A stretch of 64,000 bases of DNA. Source: a virus. Lineage: Duplodnaviria > Caudoviricetes. Below, in pieces: positions 2,951 to 19,449 of this stretch; position 1 is the stretch's first letter; every line of letters starts with the position of its first letter. The stretch covers positions 11,208 to 75,207 of the IMG/VR virus record IMGVR_UViG_3300027991_000002; one strand, given 5' to 3'. The notes under the pieces are model-generated. The model was not told where the DNA came from. It was given only the letters and a program-made list of their open reading frames with translations, and ran no database searches. Position numbers and translations under genes: made by a program.

Positions 2951-3547
2951 ATGAACAACACACAAACAGCAGTAAAAGAAATTGAATTTACCCGCATCAA
3001 CAATGATGTAAACGAAAATCCGCGCTTTGTCTGCCATTTCCTGAACTTTATTAACGAGCAAGACCGTAAGACCTTTTTCGGGTTTGAACTCGGTTACGAC
3101 CTTGCTATTGCGAAATCCCGCGAACTGGGAGGGCGGAAATTCCATAACAGGCAGTACGGAGGCGGAATAGTATTCCAAATGTATGACGGTGAAATTCCCG
3201 CAATGACGGAACGCGTCCGCGAAATTCAGAGCCGTACTATTAAATTCAAAACAGAATGGACGGACAAAGATTTTCGCAAAATGGAACGGGCAATAGCTAA
3301 ACACTTTAGCGGGCAAACCACCACAACGCGGGACGGGGTTTTCTATCTTGGCTCATTCAAAGAAATAGATAGCAACTTCGGGCTGGCTTACACTTCTTCG
3401 GGCGTTCATGCTTGCTACGGAATATGCAACACCGAAGTAAAATATAATGAGAAATACAACTATCAATTTTTCATCATGTCAGAGGACGGCAAACCGTATG
3501 CAGAACTTTGGGACACAAACGAAAACGAAAAATACATTCAACTATAA
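2951..3547 (+). CDS. early phage protein (198 aa)
   Basis: N-terminal RINNDVNENPRFVCHF...GGRKFHNRQYGGGIVFQ motif recalled from widespread phage proteins, plus a C-terminal extension. Confidence 0.8.
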   Translation: MNNTQTAVKEIEFTRINNDVNENPRFVCHFLNFINEQDRKTFFGFELGYDLAIAKSRELGGRKFHNRQYGGGIVFQMYDGEIPAMTERVREIQSRTIKFKTEWTDKDFRKMERAIAKHFSGQTTTTRDGVFYLGSFKEIDSNFGLAYTSSGVHACYGICNTEVKYNEKYNYQFFIMSEDGKPYAELWDTNENEKYIQL

Positions 3548-3648
3548 AAATGTGTGTTGCCTGTCAAACAACCCCGTAAGGTTTAAGATAGGAAGCAAAG
3601 AACGAACAAAAACAAAGTATAAATTTAACTATCAAAAATGAACAGACA

Positions 3649-4008
3649 ATGAAAAAAGAAACTCAAAATAATCAGCCGTTACCCTCGTACATTCTTAACC
3701 TTTTCGCCAAGTGCGAAGCACTGAAAGCGGAAGAAAGATTAACTACAACTTTTGGCGCGAATCATAGCTACGATATTTTTCGCTACGAAGGAAAATTTTT
3801 AATCCAACAAACGGGCAACTATTGGAAACGTGATGCAATTTATGAAAGTTTCAAATTTGCAACCGCAAAAGAACTTAATCAAAAACTGCGTACTATTCCG
3901 TATTACGATTGGTACGCTAAAAATCATTTCACAGGTAAAACGCAACACATGGATAATATTTCTAACTTCTGTAATGCGTTCAAACTTGAAACTGTTGAAA
4001 CTATCTAA
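3649..4008 (+). CDS. hypothetical protein (119 aa)
   Basis: ORF track; A-rich start context. Confidence 0.7.
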   Translation: MKKETQNNQPLPSYILNLFAKCEALKAEERLTTTFGANHSYDIFRYEGKFLIQQTGNYWKRDAIYESFKFATAKELNQKLRTIPYYDWYAKNHFTGKTQHMDNISNFCNAFKLETVETI

Positions 4009-4058
4009 CCCTCATCAGCGAACACAAAAAACAAACTGATTTAAAACTGAAAAAAACA

Positions 4059-4286
4059 ATGACAACCCGAAAGATGATTTTTAAGAATCAAGCAGAACTC
4101 GACAACTTCTTGGAAAACCACATTGCGCGAGCCGGAACTATTGAGCCGTTCTTTGATGGCAAGCTGGTAGTGAATATGATTTGCGTAGGATGTGAGCATA
4201 AGCATCACCCCGTTAATTCTGCCGTTCATTTTGACAGCGTTAATATAGATGATGAGTATAATGACTTCATAATGCCTCTGCAATGA
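4059..4286 (+). CDS. hypothetical protein (75 aa)
   Basis: ORF track; CxxC motif. Confidence 0.65.
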   Translation: MTTRKMIFKNQAELDNFLENHIARAGTIEPFFDGKLVVNMICVGCEHKHHPVNSAVHFDSVNIDDEYNDFIMPLQ

Positions 4287-4494
4287 GATACAGGCAACAG
4301 TATGAAGGCGAATGGGTTTACCCTCGAAGAAAAAGATATTTTATGCGCTGTTGCGATTGTGGCTTGGTTCATATTATTAATTTCAAACTTGTAAAACGCG
4401 GCAATGGAAAAGCAATTTTATTTCAGGCGTTCCGGCAACCAAAAAAGAAAAAATAAATTTCAATCTATCTAACTAATCCCTAAACACACCACAC

Positions 4495-4734
4495 ATGGAA
4501 CACACAACATTTATTGAAACTAACAGCCACCGCGCTCACCAGCAGTTTTTAAATACCAACGTGCCGTTTGACCGCCACACGGATATAAAAACTAAGCACC
4601 CGAAAAATAAAAATTGGTTTATATGTACGCGGGTGATTTATGAAATTCCGCGCGAAGCCCTTTACAGAGTGAAGCCGATAAAAGGGATAACAATATTTAA
4701 AAATAATCCTATCAAAGAACATAACAGACCGTAA
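4495..4734 (+). CDS. hypothetical protein (79 aa)
   Basis: ORF track. Confidence 0.6.
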   Translation: MEHTTFIETNSHRAHQQFLNTNVPFDRHTDIKTKHPKNKNWFICTRVIYEIPREALYRVKPIKGITIFKNNPIKEHNRP

Positions 4735-12148: not shown

Positions 12149-12238
12149 ATAGAACGAAGAAGCACTAACGAATGTAAAATTTTTGCCATTGAAAACAGAC
12201 AGATTAAAAATTTTATTTCGCTTTGTGCTGTGTTATGC
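12149..12238. repeat. attC-like site A (90 bp)
   Basis: AAC gaaga AGCACTAACGAATGTAAAATTTTT ... AAAAATTTTATTTCGCTTTGTGCT gt GTT. Confidence 0.75.
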
Positions 12239-12324
12239 GAGTGCGCATGGATTTTATGCGGTGGGGTTCGTTCTTTTTTCTGTTTTCAATTTTTAGCGTT
12301 GGCATTAATTAAACAATCATAAAT

Positions 12325-12741
12325 ATGAAAAGGCAACAAACAATAGTATCGGAAAAAGAAATCCTGAAACTCGGTGGAGTTGATAAGGGATATAAATTTG
12401 AACGCACCAAGCATGAACATGGGGATAGAGAAAAAATATTCTATAAGCAATGGAAGAAGGAAAATAAGCAGTTACGATGGCTAAACTTCGGGCAGGGAAT
12501 ATTGCAGGATTTATTTGCCATTACTGGTAATAATCCTTTCAACTTTATGAGGGGAGGATTGATAGGTTGGAAATTAATAATCAACAGGAGGGATAGATAC
12601 ATTGTGGCAACAGTGATGCAATGGCTCGGAACAAATTGCGGTTGGTGCTGGCTTGAAGAAACACTTAGGAAGTGCGGGTACAGATTAGAAAAAATTGAGC
12701 GGGAGGAAAAAATTGAAAACAGAAAAAAGAATGTCGCATAA
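12325..12741 (+). CDS. cassette cargo, hypothetical protein (138 aa)
   Basis: Stop TAA lies inside TCGCATAAC of site B; VATVMQWLGTNCG motif. Confidence 0.8.
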   Translation: MKRQQTIVSEKEILKLGGVDKGYKFERTKHEHGDREKIFYKQWKKENKQLRWLNFGQGILQDLFAITGNNPFNFMRGGLIGWKLIINRRDRYIVATVMQWLGTNCGWCWLEETLRKCGYRLEKIEREEKIENRKKNVA

Positions 12742-12793
12742 CGGCAAACGCTTTATGCCGTTATTTTCAATGGCATTAAAGCGTATGTTCTAT
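12736..12793. repeat. attC-like site B (58 bp)
   Basis: AAC ggcaa ACGCTTT-ATGCC loop GGCATTAAAGCGT at GTT; one extrahelical base. Confidence 0.85.
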
Positions 12794-12818
12794 TTAGGTT
12801 TTTAAAATTCTTTGAGCG

Positions 12819-13031
12819 ATGGCAAACAAAATATGCAGAATAACAATATTAGCTTTCATGTTCGGAGATATACCGAAAGGAATTGAGAACGGATATGATG
12901 ATTGGGACTTAGAAAACGGAATACAATATTGTGAAGAATTGATGCGCTATGAAGGAATGACACATGAACCGATGGATAAGTTTGAGTTGAAGAAATATAT
13001 TGAATGGGCAAAACAGAAATTGAAAGAGTGA
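12819..13031 (+). CDS. cassette cargo, hypothetical protein (70 aa)
   Basis: ORF track; between sites B and C. Confidence 0.7.
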   Translation: MANKICRITILAFMFGDIPKGIENGYDDWDLENGIQYCEELMRYEGMTHEPMDKFELKKYIEWAKQKLKE

Positions 13032-13054
13032 GTGTGGCAATTTTAAAAACTTGA

Positions 13055-13391
13055 ATAGAACGTTGCTCGGATTGAAGAATGTAAATTAAAATTATAGCGA
13101 TGCACAAGAACAGAACAGCAAACGGATTAAGGTTGCAAGAGCAACATAACCAACGTTACAAGAAAATGTTGATAGGAAAAAAAGCGAAGGACGGGCGAAC
13201 GGTTATTAACACAGAATGGATTGGAAACAGCACATACGGATGTGTTCGATTATTTTTCGATAATCAAACCGATGATTTATGTAGTAGTACAATGGGATTT
13301 AAACCGACAAGAGAGGATTTTACAGACAGGTACGGAATTACATGGTGAGCGATGGCAATTTTAATTTATTTCTTTCAATCTGGTGTTAGTT
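13055..13391. repeat. attC-like site C (337 bp, gene in loop)
   Basis: GATTGAA-GAATGTAAATTAAAATT pairs with AATTTTAATTTATTTCTTTCAATC (13358-13380). Confidence 0.8.
13100..13348 (+). CDS. hypothetical protein inside attC C loop (82 aa)
   Basis: ORF track; bracketed by AGCGATG motifs. Confidence 0.7.
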   Translation: MHKNRTANGLRLQEQHNQRYKKMLIGKKAKDGRTVINTEWIGNSTYGCVRLFFDNQTDDLCSSTMGFKPTREDFTDRYGITW

Positions 13392-13421
13392 TTAGTTTTT
13401 AACAGGCAAACAAAATAGAAA

Positions 13422-13613
13422 ATGGAAAAGTTATCAGACAAAGCAGAAAAGAGAATTAAGAAAATCTATCCTGATGCGAGGGCAGAGAGGGATGGCGCAA
13501 TGTTCTTTATAGTAACTGACTTACTTAAAGGAGAGGACAGAACTTTAGGTGGTGGATTTAGCAGAGATGGCGCGTGGTGTAGCGCGGGTTGCTCTGTGCC
13601 TGTTAAAAATTGA
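13422..13613 (+). CDS. cassette cargo, hypothetical protein (63 aa)
   Basis: ORF track; ends in the outer arm of site D. Confidence 0.7.
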   Translation: MEKLSDKAEKRIKKIYPDARAERDGAMFFIVTDLLKGEDRTLGGGFSRDGAWCSAGCSVPVKN

Positions 13614-13959
13614 AACTAACGAGGAAGGATTTGTGAAGTAAAATTTTCGATTAAAAACTATAACCTTTAAAAACAGAAAAGCGATGGAAGTAAAAGGATT
13701 TTATATCAGAAGCAATGGCGACCCTTCGGTTGGTATATTCTCTGCTCAATGGGAATTGCGAAATGACTTCGTATTTGACGACATAGAAGATTTGGAATAT
13801 TTCAGGTCGGGGCTTGCGCGTTTGCTCGGTGAGCATTGCGGGGAGAGGTGCTATGTGCAAACTTTTGAGGAGTGGGCTGAACAAATTAAATTAGAAGAAA
13901 AAATGTGTAGTGACGCACAGAAGGAAGAAAATTTTATTTCATCAAATCCTGTGTTGTCG
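13614..13959. repeat. attC-like site D (346 bp)
   Basis: GGATTTG-TGAAGTAAAATTTT pairs with AAAATTTTATTTCATCAAATCC (13928-13949), then tgt GTT at 13953. Confidence 0.8.
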
Positions 13960-14046
13960 GATAGTTTGCCTTTTGATTTAGCAAGTCATCCTGACACAGA
14001 AGCTGACGGACATGTATTCTGCGGTAAATGTGGAAAAGAAAAGTGA
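13684..14046 (+). CDS. hypothetical protein reading through the attC D arm (120 aa)
   Basis: Peptide ENFISSNPVLSDSL is the attC arm; C-terminal CxxC. Confidence 0.7.
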   Translation: MEVKGFYIRSNGDPSVGIFSAQWELRNDFVFDDIEDLEYFRSGLARLLGEHCGERCYVQTFEEWAEQIKLEEKMCSDAQKEENFISSNPVLSDSLPFDLASHPDTEADGHVFCGKCGKEK

Positions 14047-14056
14047 GGCAAATTTC

Positions 14057-14588
14057 CGACAACGGGAAGGGGATTGAAGAATGTATTTTAATTTTTTAGC
14101 ATGGGCAAACTAATGGTAACACCAATATTCCAAAACGAAGCGTTCGCGTTCATCGAACAACACCACAGGCATCATAGAAAGCCAGTAGGCAGCGTGTTTC
14201 AGATTGCAGTGAGCGAGGGTGAGCGTGTGGCAGGGGTGGCGGTTGTTGGCAGACCAAACGGACGAAAACAGCAGGACGGATTTACATTAGAAGTTACACG
14301 GCTATGCACAGACGGAACTAAAAATGCCTGCTCAATGCTTTATGCAGCTTGCTGGAGAGCAGCCAAAGAATTAGGTTATCGAAAACTGATTACATACATA
14401 CTGAACACTGAGCCGGGGACATCATTAAAAGCAAGCGGGTGGAGATGCGTTGGGGAGCGCGGTGGCGGGAGTTGGAACGTACCGAGCCGCCCCCGTGTTG
14501 ACAAACATCCGTTGCAGAAAAAATTGTTATTTGAAATCGAGTAGCGCGATGGGAAAATTAAAATATTTCTTTCAATCCCATGTTGTTG
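14057..14588. repeat. attC-like site E (532 bp, gene in loop)
   Basis: GGGATTGAA-GAATGTATTTTAATTTT pairs with AAAATTAAAATATTTCTTTCAATCCC, then at GTT at 14582. Confidence 0.8.
14101..14544 (+). CDS. XF1762-family (Mom-like GNAT-fold) protein
   Basis: FIEQHHRHH, GVAVVGRP, TLEVTRLCTDGTKNACSMLY, LITYIL, GTSLKASGW motifs. Confidence 0.8.
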   Translation: MGKLMVTPIFQNEAFAFIEQHHRHHRKPVGSVFQIAVSEGERVAGVAVVGRPNGRKQQDGFTLEVTRLCTDGTKNACSMLYAACWRAAKELGYRKLITYILNTEPGTSLKASGWRCVGERGGGSWNVPSRPRVDKHPLQKKLLFEIE

Positions 14589-14621
14589 GCAGCGTAGCTG
14601 AGTTTGCTTTTCGCAAATTGC

Positions 14622-14831
14622 CAACAACGTCACGCAGGATTTATGAAGGATTTTTTACGATTTTAAAACCAACAAATATGAAAACACCAAAAGAAATTTT
14701 AGAAGGAAAACAAGCATTCAAAGATTTCCTGTATAAAGCACCCGACTGGATTAGGGAAGACATTATTGCAGCAATGATGGAATACGCATTGGAGCAAGTA
14801 AAAAATCTTTCATTAAATCCTGTTGTTGTTG
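14622..14831. repeat. attC-like site F (210 bp)
   Basis: AGGATTT-ATGAAGGATTTTTTAC pairs with GTAAAAAATCTTTCATTAAATCCT, then gtt GTT at 14825. Confidence 0.8.
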
Positions 14832-14938
14832 GGCGCAGCGAACAGTTAAAATCTGACTTGTACAAATTCAGGGATATGTATTGTCAAAATATTGACTTAG
14901 CTACCATAGATGAATATGTTGACGGCTTAGGATTTTAA
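14678..14938 (+). CDS. hypothetical protein reading through the attC F arm (86 aa)
   Basis: Start moved to ATG 14678 (A-rich context); VKNLSLNPVVVGRSEQL is encoded by the arm. Confidence 0.65.
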   Translation: MKTPKEILEGKQAFKDFLYKAPDWIREDIIAAMMEYALEQVKNLSLNPVVVGRSEQLKSDLYKFRDMYCQNIDLATIDEYVDGLGF

Positions 14939-14942
14939 TTGC

Positions 14943-15073
14943 CAACAACGTTCATCGGATTTATTCTCGTTGCATTAAATGATAAAAACTTAAACCATAA
15001 ATAAAACTCATTATGAAAAACAAACCTACGATTAAAAAGAAAGCCAGCAATGGAATGAAATCCGTTGTTCATG
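14943..15073. repeat. attC-like site G (131 bp)
   Basis: GGATTT-ATTCTCGTTGC pairs with GCAATGGAATGAAATCC, then gtt GTT at 15067. Confidence 0.7.
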
Positions 15074-15333
15074 GCAGTGCGGATAAATGGTCAAAAATTA
15101 AGTGGAGCAAAAAAGTTTTGCAAAAAGCGCAGGAAAATCATATCTGGTTGAACGCTTTTGATTGCGTAAGACCGACACCTGCATTCTGCGAAAGTCTTGG
15201 TAGGTCAATCATCAATAAATTACGGGATGAAGAAAATTTAATCCCGATGAGTGGCATTACATCGGATGTTGAAGCGATGCGAGAGATTGCAAAACTTACC
15301 CCGATAATGTACATGAGCATTAACAAGAGCTAA
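15013..15333 (+). CDS. hypothetical protein reading through the attC G arm (106 aa)
   Basis: ASNGMKSVVHGSA is encoded by the arm. Confidence 0.65.
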   Translation: MKNKPTIKKKASNGMKSVVHGSADKWSKIKWSKKVLQKAQENHIWLNAFDCVRPTPAFCESLGRSIINKLRDEENLIPMSGITSDVEAMREIAKLTPIMYMSINKS

Positions 15334-15347
15334 GATGTGAGCATTGC

Positions 15348-15404
15348 CATGAACGGTAGAGATTGTTGCCGTTAATTTCAATGGCATACAATCTAATGTT
15401 ATCT
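15348..15404. repeat. attC-like site H (57 bp)
   Basis: AGATTGT-TGCC gttaatttcaat GGCATACAATCT; loop nearly identical to that of site B. Confidence 0.85.
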
Positions 15405-15436
15405 GCCGTTTTGGATTAACTAAATAAATATAAATT

Positions 15437-15742
15437 ATGAAAGCAAAAGAGTATGCACAAAGGGTAACAAGTACAGAAAATGTTCAAGATGCAATGACTG
15501 AGCTTGGCAAATGCGGAAAAGATTTTTTCAACGAATTTATCGCAATGAGAAAATCACGTAACATAAAAACCGATGATGGATTATTAACGCTGGTGAAAGA
15601 GTTCGATAATAAATTCAGAACATTTTCTGTACTTGTGGATTCACACTACAAAGGGATGGTTAAACCAAATGGATTCATTGAACTGCTTCGGGAGTTTGTT
15701 CCTGTACTTGCTAATGAATATGAAAGGAAAAATGGCAGATAA
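15437..15742 (+). CDS. cassette cargo, hypothetical protein (101 aa)
   Basis: Stop TAA lies inside GCAGATAAC of site I. Confidence 0.75.
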   Translation: MKAKEYAQRVTSTENVQDAMTELGKCGKDFFNEFIAMRKSRNIKTDDGLLTLVKEFDNKFRTFSVLVDSHYKGMVKPNGFIELLREFVPVLANEYERKNGR

Positions 15743-16571
15743 CGGTTACGGCTTTAAGCAGTGGGGATTATTAGCACAAATGTTCAATCGAAGCGATAAA
15801 AAAAATAAAGAAAAATTTTTAGGGAGGCATTTTTAATTTAATCATTTAATCATAAATAAAACAAAATGGAAAAAGTAACAAACACAGCAAAGAACCCACG
15901 ACTTGAATGGTTGATGGGTGGAAATCCTAATGCTATTGAAGCACAGGAAGTGCAAGGACAAAAGGAACTTGTGAAATCATCACAACTACCAGCGAAAGTA
16001 AATTCGCCAAGAGGAGTGAACATTGAGGAGCAATACGCCTTGATGGGAATAAAAGTAATTGGCAAAACCAAAGGAGATGAATTATTCCTTGATGTGGAAT
16101 TGCCAAATGGGTGGAAGAAGGAAGCAACCGACCATTCAATGTGGAATAAATTGGTTGATGATAAAGGAAGGGAAAGGGCAAGTTTCTTTTACAAAGCTGC
16201 ATTTTATGACCGAGATGCTTTTGTGAATTTTAGCACACGGTATAATTGGAATGCCAATTACGAGGATAAGGACAATGTGAGCTACTTTGTAAAAGATAAC
16301 TCCATAGGTGAAATTGTATTTGAAACAGAAAAGATGAGTAAAGATGTAAAACAGCCGAACTACTTTAAAATACAGGATGAGTTACAAAACCAATGTAAAC
16401 AATTTCTGAAAGACAAGTTCCCTGAACACGAAAACATAAATGCTTATTGGAATTAAATCATTTAATCATTAAGAGCGTGGGCAAAAATTTTTCTTTATTT
16501 TTTTTCGTTCATATCAGCACGAACTTAAATATGGAGCGATACACCCCATTGCTTTAAAGCCGATGTTATGC
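15737..16571. repeat. attC-like site I (835 bp, gene in loop)
   Basis: CGGCTTT-AAGCAGTGGGG / CCCCATTGCTTTAAAGCCG plus AAAAAAAATAAAGAAAAATTTTT / AAAAATTTTTCTTTATTTTTTTT. Confidence 0.85.
15866..16456 (+). CDS. conserved phage protein inside attC I loop (196 aa)
   Basis: NPNAIEAQEVQGQKELV, LPNGWKKEATDHSMW, GRERASFFYKAAFYDRDA motifs. Confidence 0.85.
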   Translation: MEKVTNTAKNPRLEWLMGGNPNAIEAQEVQGQKELVKSSQLPAKVNSPRGVNIEEQYALMGIKVIGKTKGDELFLDVELPNGWKKEATDHSMWNKLVDDKGRERASFFYKAAFYDRDAFVNFSTRYNWNANYEDKDNVSYFVKDNSIGEIVFETEKMSKDVKQPNYFKIQDELQNQCKQFLKDKFPEHENINAYWN

Positions 16572-16733
16572 GAAGTTGCCAATACCAAATTCAAAAAGAC
16601 AAAAAACTCATTGGCAATTTTGCATAACGTTCGAGGATAAACGAAGTGCATGAGTAACCGAAAAATTAACTGAACAGCAAGTAAGAAATTTTAATAAAAA
16701 TATTTTTAGGGAGGGAATTTAAAAAACAACATT

Positions 16734-16892
16734 ATGAAAATAAACTTTGATGTGAACCTGCCGGATTGGTTTGTAATAACCGGACTTACTGTTTTTACAG
16801 TTTGGATGATTCTTGACATAATAAAAAACTGGCTCAAACTTATCATTTGGAATTATGAGAGGAAAATTAAAAAAATGGAAAACGAAAAGTAA
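16734..16892 (+). CDS. small membrane protein inside attC J loop (52 aa)
   Basis: Translated by hand; one hydrophobic helix; TAATG coupling to next gene. Confidence 0.6.
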   Translation: MKINFDVNLPDWFVITGLTVFTVWMILDIIKNWLKLIIWNYERKIKKMENEK

Positions 16893-17317
16893 TGGCAATC
16901 TTAAACTATACAACCTCCATTGATTCTGAAAAGACAATCGGAGAGATTCAAAAATGCTTAGTGAAGCACGGGGCAATGAAAATCACCACTGATTATCAGA
17001 ACGGGATTCCATGCGCTGTTACTTTCTGCCTAATCATCAAAGAGAATATGGTTGGGTTTGCATTGCCAGCAAATTATTCAGGCGTTCTCAGGGCAATGAA
17101 GCGAGATGGAAAAGTTCCGCGCTCAAAATGCACAGAGGAGCAGGCAATAAAAGTTTCATGGAGAATAGTGAAAGACTGGGTTGAAGCGCAGATGGCAATA
17201 GTTGAAGCTGAACTTGCACAGATGGCGGAAGTGTTTTTGCCGTATGCAGTTACAAAGAATGGAAACACTCTTTGGAAACAGATGGAAGGAAACGGAATGT
17301 TATTACTTAACTCTTAA
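16892..17317 (+). CDS. conserved phage protein inside attC J loop (141 aa)
   Basis: NYTTSI..EKTIGEIQ..L..HGA, VSWRIVKDWVEAQMA, EVFLPY motifs. Confidence 0.85.
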   Translation: MAILNYTTSIDSEKTIGEIQKCLVKHGAMKITTDYQNGIPCAVTFCLIIKENMVGFALPANYSGVLRAMKRDGKVPRSKCTEEQAIKVSWRIVKDWVEAQMAIVEAELAQMAEVFLPYAVTKNGNTLWKQMEGNGMLLLNS

Positions 17318-17485
17318 CCTTTTTACAATTTGAAAAATTGTGATGAGCGTAGGCAAAATATTTTTATTAAAATTTCTCTAACCGTAATTGACAGTACAGA
17401 TGGAAGCATTTCGTTTATCCTTTGTTATCAGATGAAAAATTATCCCTTTTGAGCGCGGGATGCTCGTAATTTAATAATTACAAAA

Positions 17486-17683
17486 ATGAAAACATGGGAA
17501 TATAAAATTAATAGCGTAAATGAATATGATGCTTTTGAAAATGTTGGCGGCTCGGTTGCCGAAAGAATTTTAGATGGAGCGTCAAAAGACGGATGGGAAT
17601 TAGTGTCTGTTGTCGGAATAAACACAATGGTAATTTTTTACTTTAAAAGAGAATTAAATAATGGAGGTGCGGTGGCGGGATAA
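17486..17683 (+). CDS. DUF4177-like small protein (cassette cargo)
   Basis: MKTWEYK ... DGWELVSV ... FYFKRE signature. Confidence 0.8.
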   Translation: MKTWEYKINSVNEYDAFENVGGSVAERILDGASKDGWELVSVVGINTMVIFYFKRELNNGGAVAG

Positions 17684-17692
17684 TTTTTTTTC

Positions 17693-17820
17693 TGATAACG
17701 GATGAAGATAAAAGAAGCAGCCCTAAATAGAATGTTCAGCGGGTACGTAACCGATAGGGTAACTGAACTTAGGCAGACCTCCGATTTTGCTCGGCTGTTT
17801 CTTTTTATCTTGTGTTGTGT
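17693..17820. repeat. attC-like site K (128 bp)
   Basis: AAC ggatg AAGATAAAA-GAAGCAGCC pairs with GGCTGTTTCTTTTTATCTT gt GTT. Confidence 0.85.
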
Positions 17821-17878
17821 GAGAGCATAGGGATTTCAGGCGATGGGCAGTTTTTAACTTAAAATAATTTTAAAGCGT

Positions 17879-18193
17879 ATGGCAAAGATTTATTTCAGCA
17901 AATACAATGATGAGGAAGTGGCTTATACATTGGACTATTGGAAAACTTACATGGAAGAAAACCTCATTGAAGAAATGACATTGTTTGAAGGCAAGCGAAT
18001 GACAGGCGAGGGCTATTTCTATTGTAAAGAATACTTTGAAGTTGGATTAGCGAGAGAGTCATGTGGAAAGATATGCGAGGGATATAAGCCGAACAATGGC
18101 AAGAATGGCAGATGCAAACATTATGGATATTGCTATGAGCCAACAGATAAAAGGTTGGTGTTGCAAGCGGGCGGAAAAATTATTTTAAGTTAA
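17879..18193 (+). CDS. cassette cargo, Cys-rich protein (104 aa)
   Basis: FYCKEY, SCGKICEGYKPNNGKNGRCKHYGYCY. Confidence 0.75.
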   Translation: MAKIYFSKYNDEEVAYTLDYWKTYMEENLIEEMTLFEGKRMTGEGYFYCKEYFEVGLARESCGKICEGYKPNNGKNGRCKHYGYCYEPTDKRLVLQAGGKIILS

Positions 18194-18200
18194 AAATTTC

Positions 18201-18260
18201 ACACAACAAATATATGTATTTTTCTCTTACAACTATTTGAAACTTAAACCATAACACCAT
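18201..18260 (-). other. attI-like site
   Basis: Last AAC (18205-18207) has no hairpin partner. On the minus strand: GTTATGG (18255-18249), GTTGTAA (18233-18227), then GTTGTGTGA, directly beside the integrase-domain gene. Confidence 0.6.
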
Positions 18261-18285
18261 GCAAAATTTTTTGTATATTTAAAAC

Positions 18286-18855
18286 ATGAATAACGCTCTC
18301 ATTTATGCTTTAGCTTGTCCGGAAACAGGTCAAATAAAATATGTTGGCAAAACAAATCATTCATTAAAAAGAAGATTGCAAAATCATATAAATAACAAGA
18401 GGTCAAAAAGCAGGTGCTCTTTTTGGATTAGAGAATTAAAAAGTAAAAATATCTATCCTGAAATAATATTACTTGAAACAGTAATTGATGGGCTATGGAG
18501 ATTTAGAGAATCAGAATGGATAAAAAACTTTGGCAGAGATAATTTATTAAATGAAAACGCAGGCGGTGGAGGAATGGGGACATCTAAGATAAATTATGTT
18601 TTTTCTTTTTCCGAATCTCTTTCACAATATTCTGAAAACACTAAGAGAAACTATTTAAGCATAGTAAAAATATTCTTACATGAACATGGATGCGTTTCAA
18701 CATCAGCAGTTATTATTAATAAAAAAATGATTGAAAATTATATGATGAGATTTAAGAATAGACACAGTTATAATCAAACCTTGTCTGCATTAAAAAAATT
18801 CTTTTTATTTTTAGGTCAACCAAGAAAATTAAATGCAATTAAATATTGGTATTAA
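18286..18855 (+). CDS. GIY-YIG nuclease fused to a tyrosine-integrase N-terminal (SAM-like) domain; no catalytic integrase domain
   Basis: IYALACPETGQIKYVGKT..RLQNH..ESEWI..LLNENAGGGG, then YSENTKRNYLSIVKIFL...SYNQTLSALKKFF (compare IntI STQNQALSALLF). Confidence 0.7.
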   Translation: MNNALIYALACPETGQIKYVGKTNHSLKRRLQNHINNKRSKSRCSFWIRELKSKNIYPEIILLETVIDGLWRFRESEWIKNFGRDNLLNENAGGGGMGTSKINYVFSFSESLSQYSENTKRNYLSIVKIFLHEHGCVSTSAVIINKKMIENYMMRFKNRHSYNQTLSALKKFFLFLGQPRKLNAIKYWY

Positions 18856-18940
18856 CTCTCTCCTTGCAAACTTATATTCACATGAGTTCAAAGATTGTAG
18901 CGAATGTGGTTACTCCGCTAAACTTTATCCGGCAGTCAGC

Positions 18941-19054
18941 TTAACCTTGTCCCCGATATTTTTTAAATGAATCGGACTTGTTACGGTGTTTTTTATGCTT
19001 CCCCCGCTTTCGTGATTTACTCACATACCCTTTTATCTTTTTTTCTTTTGCCAT
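18941..19054 (-). CDS. small basic protein (37 aa, KKYRGQG end)
   Basis: Translated by hand: MAKEKKIKGYVSKSRKRGKHKKHRNKSDSFKKYRGQG; overlaps the endolysin stop. Confidence 0.65.
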   Translation of the reverse strand: MAKEKKIKGYVSKSRKRGKHKKHRNKSDSFKKYRGQG

Positions 19055-19449
19055 CACTCAATAAATAAAACTTCTTGTTGGAAATTCTTATTCATGCCAA
19101 AATGAATACTTTTATTTTTGAAATTTATTCCAATTCGTTGCATACCTAATTTTAAAGCTGATTTTACATATAGATATGCTTTATGGCTGTCCCAAGTTCC
19201 AGCAGGTCTTTTGCAAAGAATATCGGCTACCTCTGTGGGTATAAACGTATGCTCATCTGTGGCGAATCCCCCTACTGCAACTGAATGTTCAGGAGTGGAA
19301 TAGGTTCGTGTGACAATTATCGGAACTCCTGCATCCTCGCGTATGTCATCCAATAGTTTTATGAATTCAAAAGTACACTTCTCAAAGTCAATGTTTTTAT
19401 CATTGAGCGATGAGAAGTGCTTAAAAGAATTTGCTTGGTCAGGTGTCAA
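19054..19449 (-). CDS. peptidase M15A-like endolysin (divergent)
   Basis: LLDDIREDAGVPI, VGG..DEH...ADI, RIGI...IH; Zn ligands H/D/H; next to a holin-like gene. Confidence 0.7.
   Translation of the reverse strand: MTPDQANSFKHFSSLNDKNIDFEKCTFEFIKLLDDIREDAGVPIIVTRTYSTPEHSVAVGGFATDEHTFIPTEVADILCKRPAGTWDSHKAYLYVKSALKLGMQRIGINFKNKSIHFGMNKNFQQEVLFIE

Follow-up and report, generated by a model that had tools for sequence, protein, structure and literature searches.

The locus described here raises the question of what a protein joining a nuclease domain to one domain of a recombinase is doing at the end of an array of small phage genes. The stretch of DNA analysed, called the window throughout, covers 64,000 nucleotides, i.e. 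bases 11208–75207 of a phage genome that has direct terminal repeats and is 75,207 bp long (Duplodnaviria; Caudoviricetes; IMG/VR record IMGVR_UViG_3300027991_000002). The original prediction, made from the letters alone, saw in one of its genes a GIY-YIG nuclease fused to the N-terminal domain of an integron integrase, located where the gene intI should be. Judged from sequence and predicted fold, the gene product is an intact, selected two-domain protein, consisting of a GIY-YIG domain of the I-TevI class and a tyrosine-recombinase core-binding (CB) domain, with predicted nuclease activity. As to its role, we give about even chances to the reading favoured below, namely a homing-type, selfish nuclease that captured the CB domain of a cassette recombinase and whose putative cuts also promote the exchange of flanking cassettes. 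The gene and its parts are the following:

18286–18855 (stop included), plus strand: gene for the GIY-YIG/CB-domain protein of 189 amino acids, from the list of open reading frames (ORFs); self-cluster P0001 of a full-length conserved family.
18286–18561, plus strand: GIY-YIG nuclease domain, residues 1–92, above the PF01541 cut-off, with the I-TevI/T4 EndoII fold and the conserved Y7, Y19, R30, H34, E75 and N89.
18562–18585, plus strand: flexible Gly-rich linker, residues 93–100, with the motif N-x-G-G-G-G, the only part with a predicted local distance difference test (pLDDT) value <50; G93, G94 and G96 are invariant.
18586–18852, plus strand: complete tyrosine-recombinase CB (SAM-like) domain, residues 101–189, by Pfam SAM_1 and SAM_4, NCBIfam, fold and the recombinase profile A3.

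The two halves are recognized independently by sequence models. The N-terminal one matches the Pfam GIY-YIG family (PF01541) over residues 5–84 (E 1.3e-7, 32.2 bits, cut-off 22.6), and the C-terminal one matches Phage_int_SAM_1 over residues 114–176 (E 1.1e-4, 22.9 bits, cut-off 22.3). The latter is also in register with positions 6–85 of the NCBIfam models XerA, XerC and XerD, the Xer-type models being better than that of the integron integrase (IntI), its weakest NCBIfam match; in the fold search, IntI and Xer were tied. A3, the profile of the partner recombinases encoded by relatives, matches the C-terminal half with an E of 5.9e-14, this being its sole match in the whole genome. The CB domain is 36% identical to the integrase P0154 and ends at the point that corresponds to the linker preceding the catalytic domain in true recombinases. 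A phmmer search of the C-terminal half alone against the sequences of the Protein Data Bank gave no match; the family profile matched, among solved structures, XerA (9.4e-8) and IntI4 (3.6e-4). No Pfam match to a NUMOD, helix-turn-helix or zinc-finger module was found in the 189-residue protein. Phage GIY-YIG proteins of the homing type, equipped with NUMOD modules, are the closest neighbours of its GIY-YIG domain in both sequence and structure, the non-family neighbours P0013 and P0026 carrying NUMOD3 or NUMOD1.

The predicted fold agrees with these assignments. AlphaFold2 was used with the family alignment instead of the single sequence, for which the pLDDT was only 40.7, and the resulting model (mean pLDDT 88.2) consists of two domains and the disordered linker 93–100, with XerA and I-TevI as the top rows in Foldseek. 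Residues 1–92 resemble I-TevI (1ln0; Z 8.8, root mean square deviation 3.1, 88 aligned residues) and the other GIY-YIG folds of PD-T4-3 (Z 8.8), T4 EndoII (Z 8.0) and UvrC (Z 6.4), whereas residues 101–189 superpose on the N-terminal CB domains of VchIntIA, Brujita Int, XerA, XerD and lambda Int (Z 10–11.1). Since the ORF is without the R-K-H-R-H/W-Y catalytic domain, the protein is not a recombinase. Much of what had been read from the letters therefore stands: the GIY-YIG catalytic half (with boundaries at residues 1–92), the peptide motifs quoted for the other half and the stop of the frame at the domain boundary, ahead of a catalytic domain; the structure prediction of both halves, proposed then as a check, recovered the recombinase CB fold as well as the GIY-YIG fold. 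The C-terminal half is a SAM-like domain of tyrosine recombinases, as claimed (Pfam, NCBIfam and fold), but one generic to Xer and IntI and not specific to integrons.

The architecture is that of a family. Searched exhaustively with HMMER, 1.84 billion representatives yielded 13 full-length relatives (P0002–P0012, P0014 and P0015) of 174–224 amino acids and 33–45% identity, aligning over residues ~4–189 of the query and all having the C-terminal end in common; two further members, P0151 and P0152, were added by a profile search, giving 15 relatives with 32–45% identity in total. Relatives match Phage_int_SAM_4 above its cut-off. In the 13 full-length members, Y7, Y19, G21, T23, R30, H34, W47, E75, I79 and N89 are invariant, together with the Gly linker and several CB residues; the GIY-YIG positions correspond to the catalytic set of I-TevI (Y6, Y17, R27, E75 and N90). 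The invariance of all GIY-YIG catalytic residues at 32–45% identity argues for retained catalysis, as far as can be judged from sequence. Several of the relatives have short metagenomic contigs as their genomic context. With the single protein, a word-indexed homologue search returned just the self-match and a related-locus search no matches; among 50,697 deposited phage genomes tblastn found no family member, the matches being to the GIY-YIG half, and a full-text search of the literature did not find the architecture described. One of the tblastn matches, in Flavobacterium phage FPSV-D18 (L001), was rejected as a family member, being an ordinary homing endonuclease of 244 amino acids (2986–3720) that splits a helicase gene: the flanking ORFs 2296–2736 and 3793–4599 are apparently the halves of one such gene.

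The origin of the CB domain is indicated by what lies next to the nuclease gene in relatives. In six lineages (P0002, P0005, P0006, P0151, P0007 and P0010), the next gene downstream, on the same strand, encodes a tyrosine recombinase of 263–279 amino acids with R-K-H-R-H-Y kept, and the two genes overlap by 4–26 nucleotides in five of the six. By their model scores, these partners are Xer-like enzymes, not IntI: they reach 136–166 bits with the IntI model TIGR02249 (cut-off 265), which they match in two stretches, the IntI-specific insertion being absent, and their best model is the archaeal-type XerA_Arch (171–200 bits, cut-off 220); all curated cut-offs are missed. The CB domains of nuclease and neighbouring recombinase share 33–37% identity, including a common C-terminal Q-x-K-F/L-x-x-I-x-Y motif, and in a tree of CB domains the two kinds form separate groups with 81–88% support, which fits a single old capture. 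The pattern fits an ancient copying of the CB domain from the Xer-like recombinase found, in this phage group, at the end of the cassette array. One protein, P0121 (456 amino acids; L006, 889–2259), combines GIY-YIG, CB and the full tyrosine-recombinase catalytic domain in one polypeptide; its single occurrence is on a contig of 2.6 kb, and its branch is long. A search with the profile A1 yielded no fused forms of greater length, which is weak evidence; P0121 had turned up in the HMMER search.

The nuclease occurs without the recombinase in three lineages scattered on the tree, i.e. this phage, P0003 and P0014, the last sharing the layout of the window with a convergent endolysin gene coming next. 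In the phage studied here, neither PF00589 nor the partner-recombinase profile A3 found a tyrosine-recombinase catalytic domain in any of the six frames of the 75,207-bp genome. A 291-residue gene following the solo relative in L007 was considered as a recombinase and rejected, as it is not one. Two neighbours of the pairs may be mentioned here: a NinG-like gene directly after the recombinase in L009 (11450–11998), being another recombination-associated gene in the module, and a TnpB/Cas12f-like gene (OrfB_IS605 and Cas12f1-like_TNB) a few kb downstream of the nuclease–recombinase pair in L015 (6307–7494).

In the DNA in front of the nuclease gene, two features are of importance:

18205–18218, plus strand: conserved attI-like site AAC-N3-TATATGTA of 14 bp, 81 nucleotides upstream of the start codon, found in every lineage.
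18259–18282, plus strand: vestigial start codon (18259–18261) with a mini-ORF of seven codons, 54 nucleotides after the AAC, the real start being at +81 (18286).

Every lineage has AAC-N3(4)-TATATGTA placed 37–141 nucleotides upstream of the nuclease gene. The exact motif occurs once in the 75-kb genome and is therefore not a class promoter. The 54-nucleotide spacing of the vestigial ATG equals the start spacing of the recombinase or the nuclease in relatives, the distance from AAC to ATG being 54–57 nucleotides in L002, L009 and L011. Conservation is confined to the right side of the site, the left side being variable. Thus L017 and L018, which encode an identical protein, agree in 974 of 979 positions rightwards from the AAC and in 82 of 300 leftwards; for L011 and L012 the values are 4,023 of 4,023 and 16 of 46, respectively. 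Two independent pairs, one of them a paired and the other a solo lineage, therefore lose their similarity, down to the level of chance, precisely at the AAC. In the window, this triplet (18205–18207) is also the last of the cassette array:

12232–18207, plus strand: array of small accessory genes, about ten early genes that are individually flanked by inverted repeats of 17–28 nucleotides, unique to each gene; the array ends at the site.
17844–18203, plus strand: the last cassette, from the inverted-repeat scan, with an ORF of 104 amino acids (17879–18193) between the arms 17844–17871 and 18176–18203.

Counting as long those inverted repeats with a score of at least 15 and arms 40–1500 nucleotides apart, the 6.2-kb array holds eight and the other 57 kb of the window none, with about zero in shuffled sequences. 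The same one-sidedness is seen in relatives, with three on the array side and none elsewhere in both L009 and L008, one and none in L007, and two on the array side of the site in L002. Several repeats of the array are perfect; the borders lie at GTT and AAC triplets, and several arms begin with GTT and finish with AAC. The bare heptamer pairs GTTNNNN/NNNNAAC are not enriched in the array over the rest of the window, and therefore only the long repeats carry weight; no Rfam family was found in the region 11.8–19.2 kb. A direct-repeat motif like AGCG(A/T)TGGCA lies at the inner end of both arms in most inverted repeats (12295–18175; e.g. at 12815, 13348, 16474 and 17346) and sometimes overlaps a start codon, ATGGCA coding for Met-Ala. 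Concerning the cargo, the genes are mostly orphans, with one Mom-like DNA-modification gene (14101–14544; PHROG 1384, E 1.4e-38), and the cassettes of relatives include N6_N4 methyltransferases (L008, L009 and L018) and a Tad6-family gene (L009, 4106–4729), so that the arrays seem to hold counter-defence genes. Homologous cassettes are only 50–70% alike across lineages, and hence no recent cassette transfer was caught.

The same site also stands where the nuclease gene is missing. A search with the 16-mer of the site common to L008 and L017 matched 58 viral contigs, 12 of which have a Xer-like recombinase of ~270 amino acids starting 54–56 nucleotides after the AAC, the nuclease gene being absent from the interval; the remaining 46 match chance expectation. 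These recombinase-only contigs carrying ATAACTACTATATGTA are L024, L027, L049–L051, L054, L069, L072, L074 and L077–L079. Ten of their recombinases are full-length (hmmsearch E 1e-109 to 1e-126), and those of L054 (2.6e-59) and L079 (1.9e-11) are partial. The constant spacing was measured in nine of the loci, and a conserved A-rich leader like CAATAAAAT lies between ATAACTACTATATGTA and the recombinase. Long inverted repeats again occur upstream (ten) and not downstream (zero), the background in chance loci being 0.05 per kb. When L016 is compared with L072, the nuclease ORF stands out as a discrete insert, with the leader on one side and the start of the recombinase on the other, and the paired recombinase of L015 nests among close recombinase-only relatives (83/99 support). 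The basic module of the group is thus AAC-N3-TATATGTA, a leader of ~54 nucleotides and the recombinase gene, to which the nuclease gene is an optional insert in the manner of free-standing homing-endonuclease genes. Such a site-plus-recombinase module at the boundary of early and late genes in uncultured phages has apparently not been described before.

On the favoured reading, the CB domain would dock on the constant half of the site, i.e. the DNA read by the recombinase's own CB domain, and the tethered GIY-YIG domain would nick or cut some tens of bp away. During co-infection, the allele cut would be that of a phage genome bearing the site without the nuclease gene, and repair would copy this gene in, dragging along flanking markers including the cassette nearest the site. 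As the present phage has no recombinase gene, its nuclease would be an orphan persisting alone. Phage nuclease genes are known from the boundaries of genetic exchange, and I-TevI binds in one place and cuts in another (PMC10448857). With I-TevI, I-BmoI and the T4 Seg proteins the protein shares the N-terminal GIY-YIG domain of ~90 residues with its conserved Tyr, Tyr, Arg, His, Glu and Asn, and with phage GIY-YIG homing endonucleases in general the separate DNA-binding module at the C-terminus, joined on by a flexible linker, as well as a gene that is a discrete optional insert between conserved neighbours. It differs from them in that the CB domain takes the place of the NUMOD, helix-turn-helix or zinc-finger module, and in adjoining a recombination site and being usually translationally coupled to a recombinase; the homing itself is presumed here.

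There is a precedent for the shuffling that is proposed. Odn (Gp88) of the Vibrio phage ICP1 is a nuclease with a DNA-binding domain borrowed from the origin-binding domain of a rival (Barth et al. 2021, PMC8263062), and, as in Odn and the chimeric T5orf172 nucleases (PMC8263062; Barth et al. 2023, PMC10448857), a nuclease of the GIY-YIG superfamily would here have gained the DNA-binding domain of another element and inherited its target. Odn, however, takes its domain from the replication initiator of a satellite and attacks that satellite, whereas here the domain comes from a recombinase of the phage group itself, with the recombination site of related phages as the presumed target; the nuclease subfamilies also differ, being PF01541 here and T5orf172 in Odn.

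Several points weigh against this reading. The assignment of the CB domain to the TATATGTA half-site is drawn from paralogy and position, and the phage's own genome carries the site, so that self-cutting must somehow be avoided. The overlap of 4–26 nucleotides in five of six paired lineages and the fusion in P0121 hint that the protein co-operates with the recombinase and is not purely selfish, and breakpoints exact to a single triplet look more like site-specific recombination than like the repair of a nuclease cut. The recombinase tree mostly lacks resolution, the sporadic presence of the nuclease could come from loss instead of mobility, and, as said, several contexts are short metagenomic contigs.

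Some of these points lead to the explanation that survives best among the rivals, although we consider it rather unlikely, namely that the protein is an accessory subunit of cassette recombination. Its CB domain would occupy a half-site, while the nuclease would nick the unexchanged strand, resolve a one-strand junction or make single-stranded DNA for the folding of cassette ends; cassettes would thereby be inserted and excised more readily at the AAC. In the present phage, the protein would act alone or use a recombinase provided in trans, either from the host Xer system or from a co-infecting phage. Besides the overlap, the conserved gene order and the existence of the nuclease–CB–catalytic fusion, the breakpoints exactly at the AAC speak for it, the solo lineage included. 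So does the density of inverted repeats, which is highest in this nuclease-only phage, at 1.29 per kb as compared with 0.18 per kb upstream of recombinase-only modules, a comparison based on few loci. On the other side, the recombinase-only module is common, also with inverted-repeat cassettes upstream, which means that the system does not need the nuclease, and the nuclease persists without the recombinase in three scattered lineages. In tetramers of tyrosine recombinases, moreover, most of the subunit contacts come from the catalytic domain (structures of Cre and Xer), which this protein does not have. A parallel is offered by the Tsy element, which encodes, besides tyrosine recombinases, a non-essential GIY-YIG nuclease that makes transposition more efficient (Faure et al. 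2023, PMC10293859). Both there, in the Tsy element and TnsF of Tn6022-like transposons (PMC10293859), and here, a recombinase-derived protein is re-used purely as a selector of DNA targets; the nuclease and the selector are, however, separate proteins of a bacterial transposon targeting comM in that case, whereas in the phages considered here a single polypeptide contains both the nuclease and the recombinase-derived domain.

It is quite improbable, in our view, that the nuclease itself drives the exchange of cassettes. Cuts guided by the CB domain would then fall at the AAC/GTT borders, perhaps in folded inverted repeats, and ligation and repair by host or phage functions would make the array swappable without any integrase. 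Among the options of the original prediction, a chimeric nuclease aimed at core sites has turned out to be the best-supported class of explanation, the sites bound and cut being putative.

Two further explanations, each very doubtful, deny the protein a part in cutting the site. According to the first, which takes up the regulator among the options of the original prediction, the protein does not cut; its CB domain would sit on the site ahead of the nuclease gene and thereby repress expression of the module or set its timing, or it would compete with a recombinase for the site and so control cassette exchange, the nuclease being secondary or intended for other DNA. The position of the site 37–141 nucleotides upstream in every lineage, followed by a conserved leader, is in its favour, as is the need of the genome's own site to escape cutting; I-TevI, moreover, is both nuclease and autorepressor according to PMC10448857, which cites Van Roey and Derbyshire for this. 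All the GIY-YIG catalytic residues are, however, invariant across relatives that are 32–45% identical, and where the nuclease is absent, the recombinase is preceded by this site and leader too, so that the nuclease is not the reason for the site. According to the second, the link with the array is a coincidence: the repeats would be stems for RNA processing or stability, AAC-N3-TATATGTA a promoter or leader, and the protein an ordinary homing endonuclease with an unusual DNA-binding domain and its target elsewhere. This would suit repeats that bracket whole ORFs on the transcribed strand with the direct AGCG-N-TGGCA-like motif at their inner ends, and the lack of enrichment of the heptamer pairs. 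It does not suit the uniqueness of the exact motif, the breakpoints at the AAC in two independent pairs, the long inverted repeats confined to the array side in all lineages, or a CB domain paralogous to the recombinase encoded beside the site.

The remaining explanation, put forward first in the original prediction, supposes that a homing endonuclease entered an integron integrase gene in decay, which left an N-terminal piece of the integrase joined to the nuclease and the array frozen; it is hardly credible, since, although this phage lacks a recombinase and the catalytic domain could have been lost from a three-domain protein like P0121, the architecture and stop position are kept and both halves conserved in 15 relatives whose divergence excludes recent copies of one pseudogene, the catalytic residues are invariant, six lineages have an intact recombinase, complete with a CB domain, as a separate gene downstream, the CB domain is not IntI-specific, and the downstream DNA is free of frameshifts and catalytic-domain remnants.

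The downstream surroundings are simple:

18856–19053, no strand: non-coding spacer of 198 nucleotides, with no recombinase remnant; relatives have the recombinase gene there.
19054–19449, minus strand: convergent M15-type endolysin gene, the start of the late/lysis block (Pfam Peptidase_M15_3, E 8.4e-5; PHROG endolysin, E 2.6e-7).

The statement that a convergent lysis gene and not a broken integrase follows is accordingly correct. That the protein stands where intI should be holds insofar as relatives have a tyrosine recombinase in this place and an attI-like site lies just upstream; that recombinase is, however, Xer-like, and this phage has none, the full integrase sought elsewhere in the genome being absent from it. 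Homologues with the same fusion and stop position, beside similar arrays, had also been proposed for searching, and were found: the former in the 15 relatives, the latter as upstream-only inverted repeats in L002, L007, L008 and L009. Scans for sigma-70 promoters and terminators, as well as folding of the downstream spacer, gave no signal above chance. No second genome of this phage was found, the exact sequence of 39 nucleotides to the right of the site occurring in no other contig of the viral and metagenome collections.

It should be pointed out that the system as a whole resembles an integron platform, having (in relatives) a tyrosine-recombinase gene beside a constant site at which different cassettes abut in near-identical genomes, and small cassettes of mostly orphan or anti-restriction genes with AAC/GTT borders. 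The differences are the Xer-like recombinase of 263–279 amino acids, which is without the IntI-specific insertion and below the IntI cut-off; the long unique inverted repeats bracketing each gene, as compared with the attC of 60–140 nucleotides at one end in integrons; and the genes reading towards the site. We know of no integrons with a nuclease partner. Clusters of attC without an integrase have been described in virulent phages (Qi et al. 2023, PMC9892861), and it is such an integrase-less array that the phage studied here resembles.

The tyrosine-recombinase CB domain represents a new class of DNA-binding module for the modular GIY-YIG nucleases, and the protein a clear natural case of a nuclease inheriting the address of a recombinase; if the specificity of its CB domain follows that of the recombinase, the family would be a possible source of compact site-directed nucleases. 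The conserved protein and the conserved 14-bp site together mark the end at which a cassette array of uncultured phages is active, and, since related genomes differ exactly at one triplet, the shuffling of accessory and counter-defence genes in phages becomes testable with a defined site, a recombinase, a nuclease and cassettes bounded by inverted repeats.

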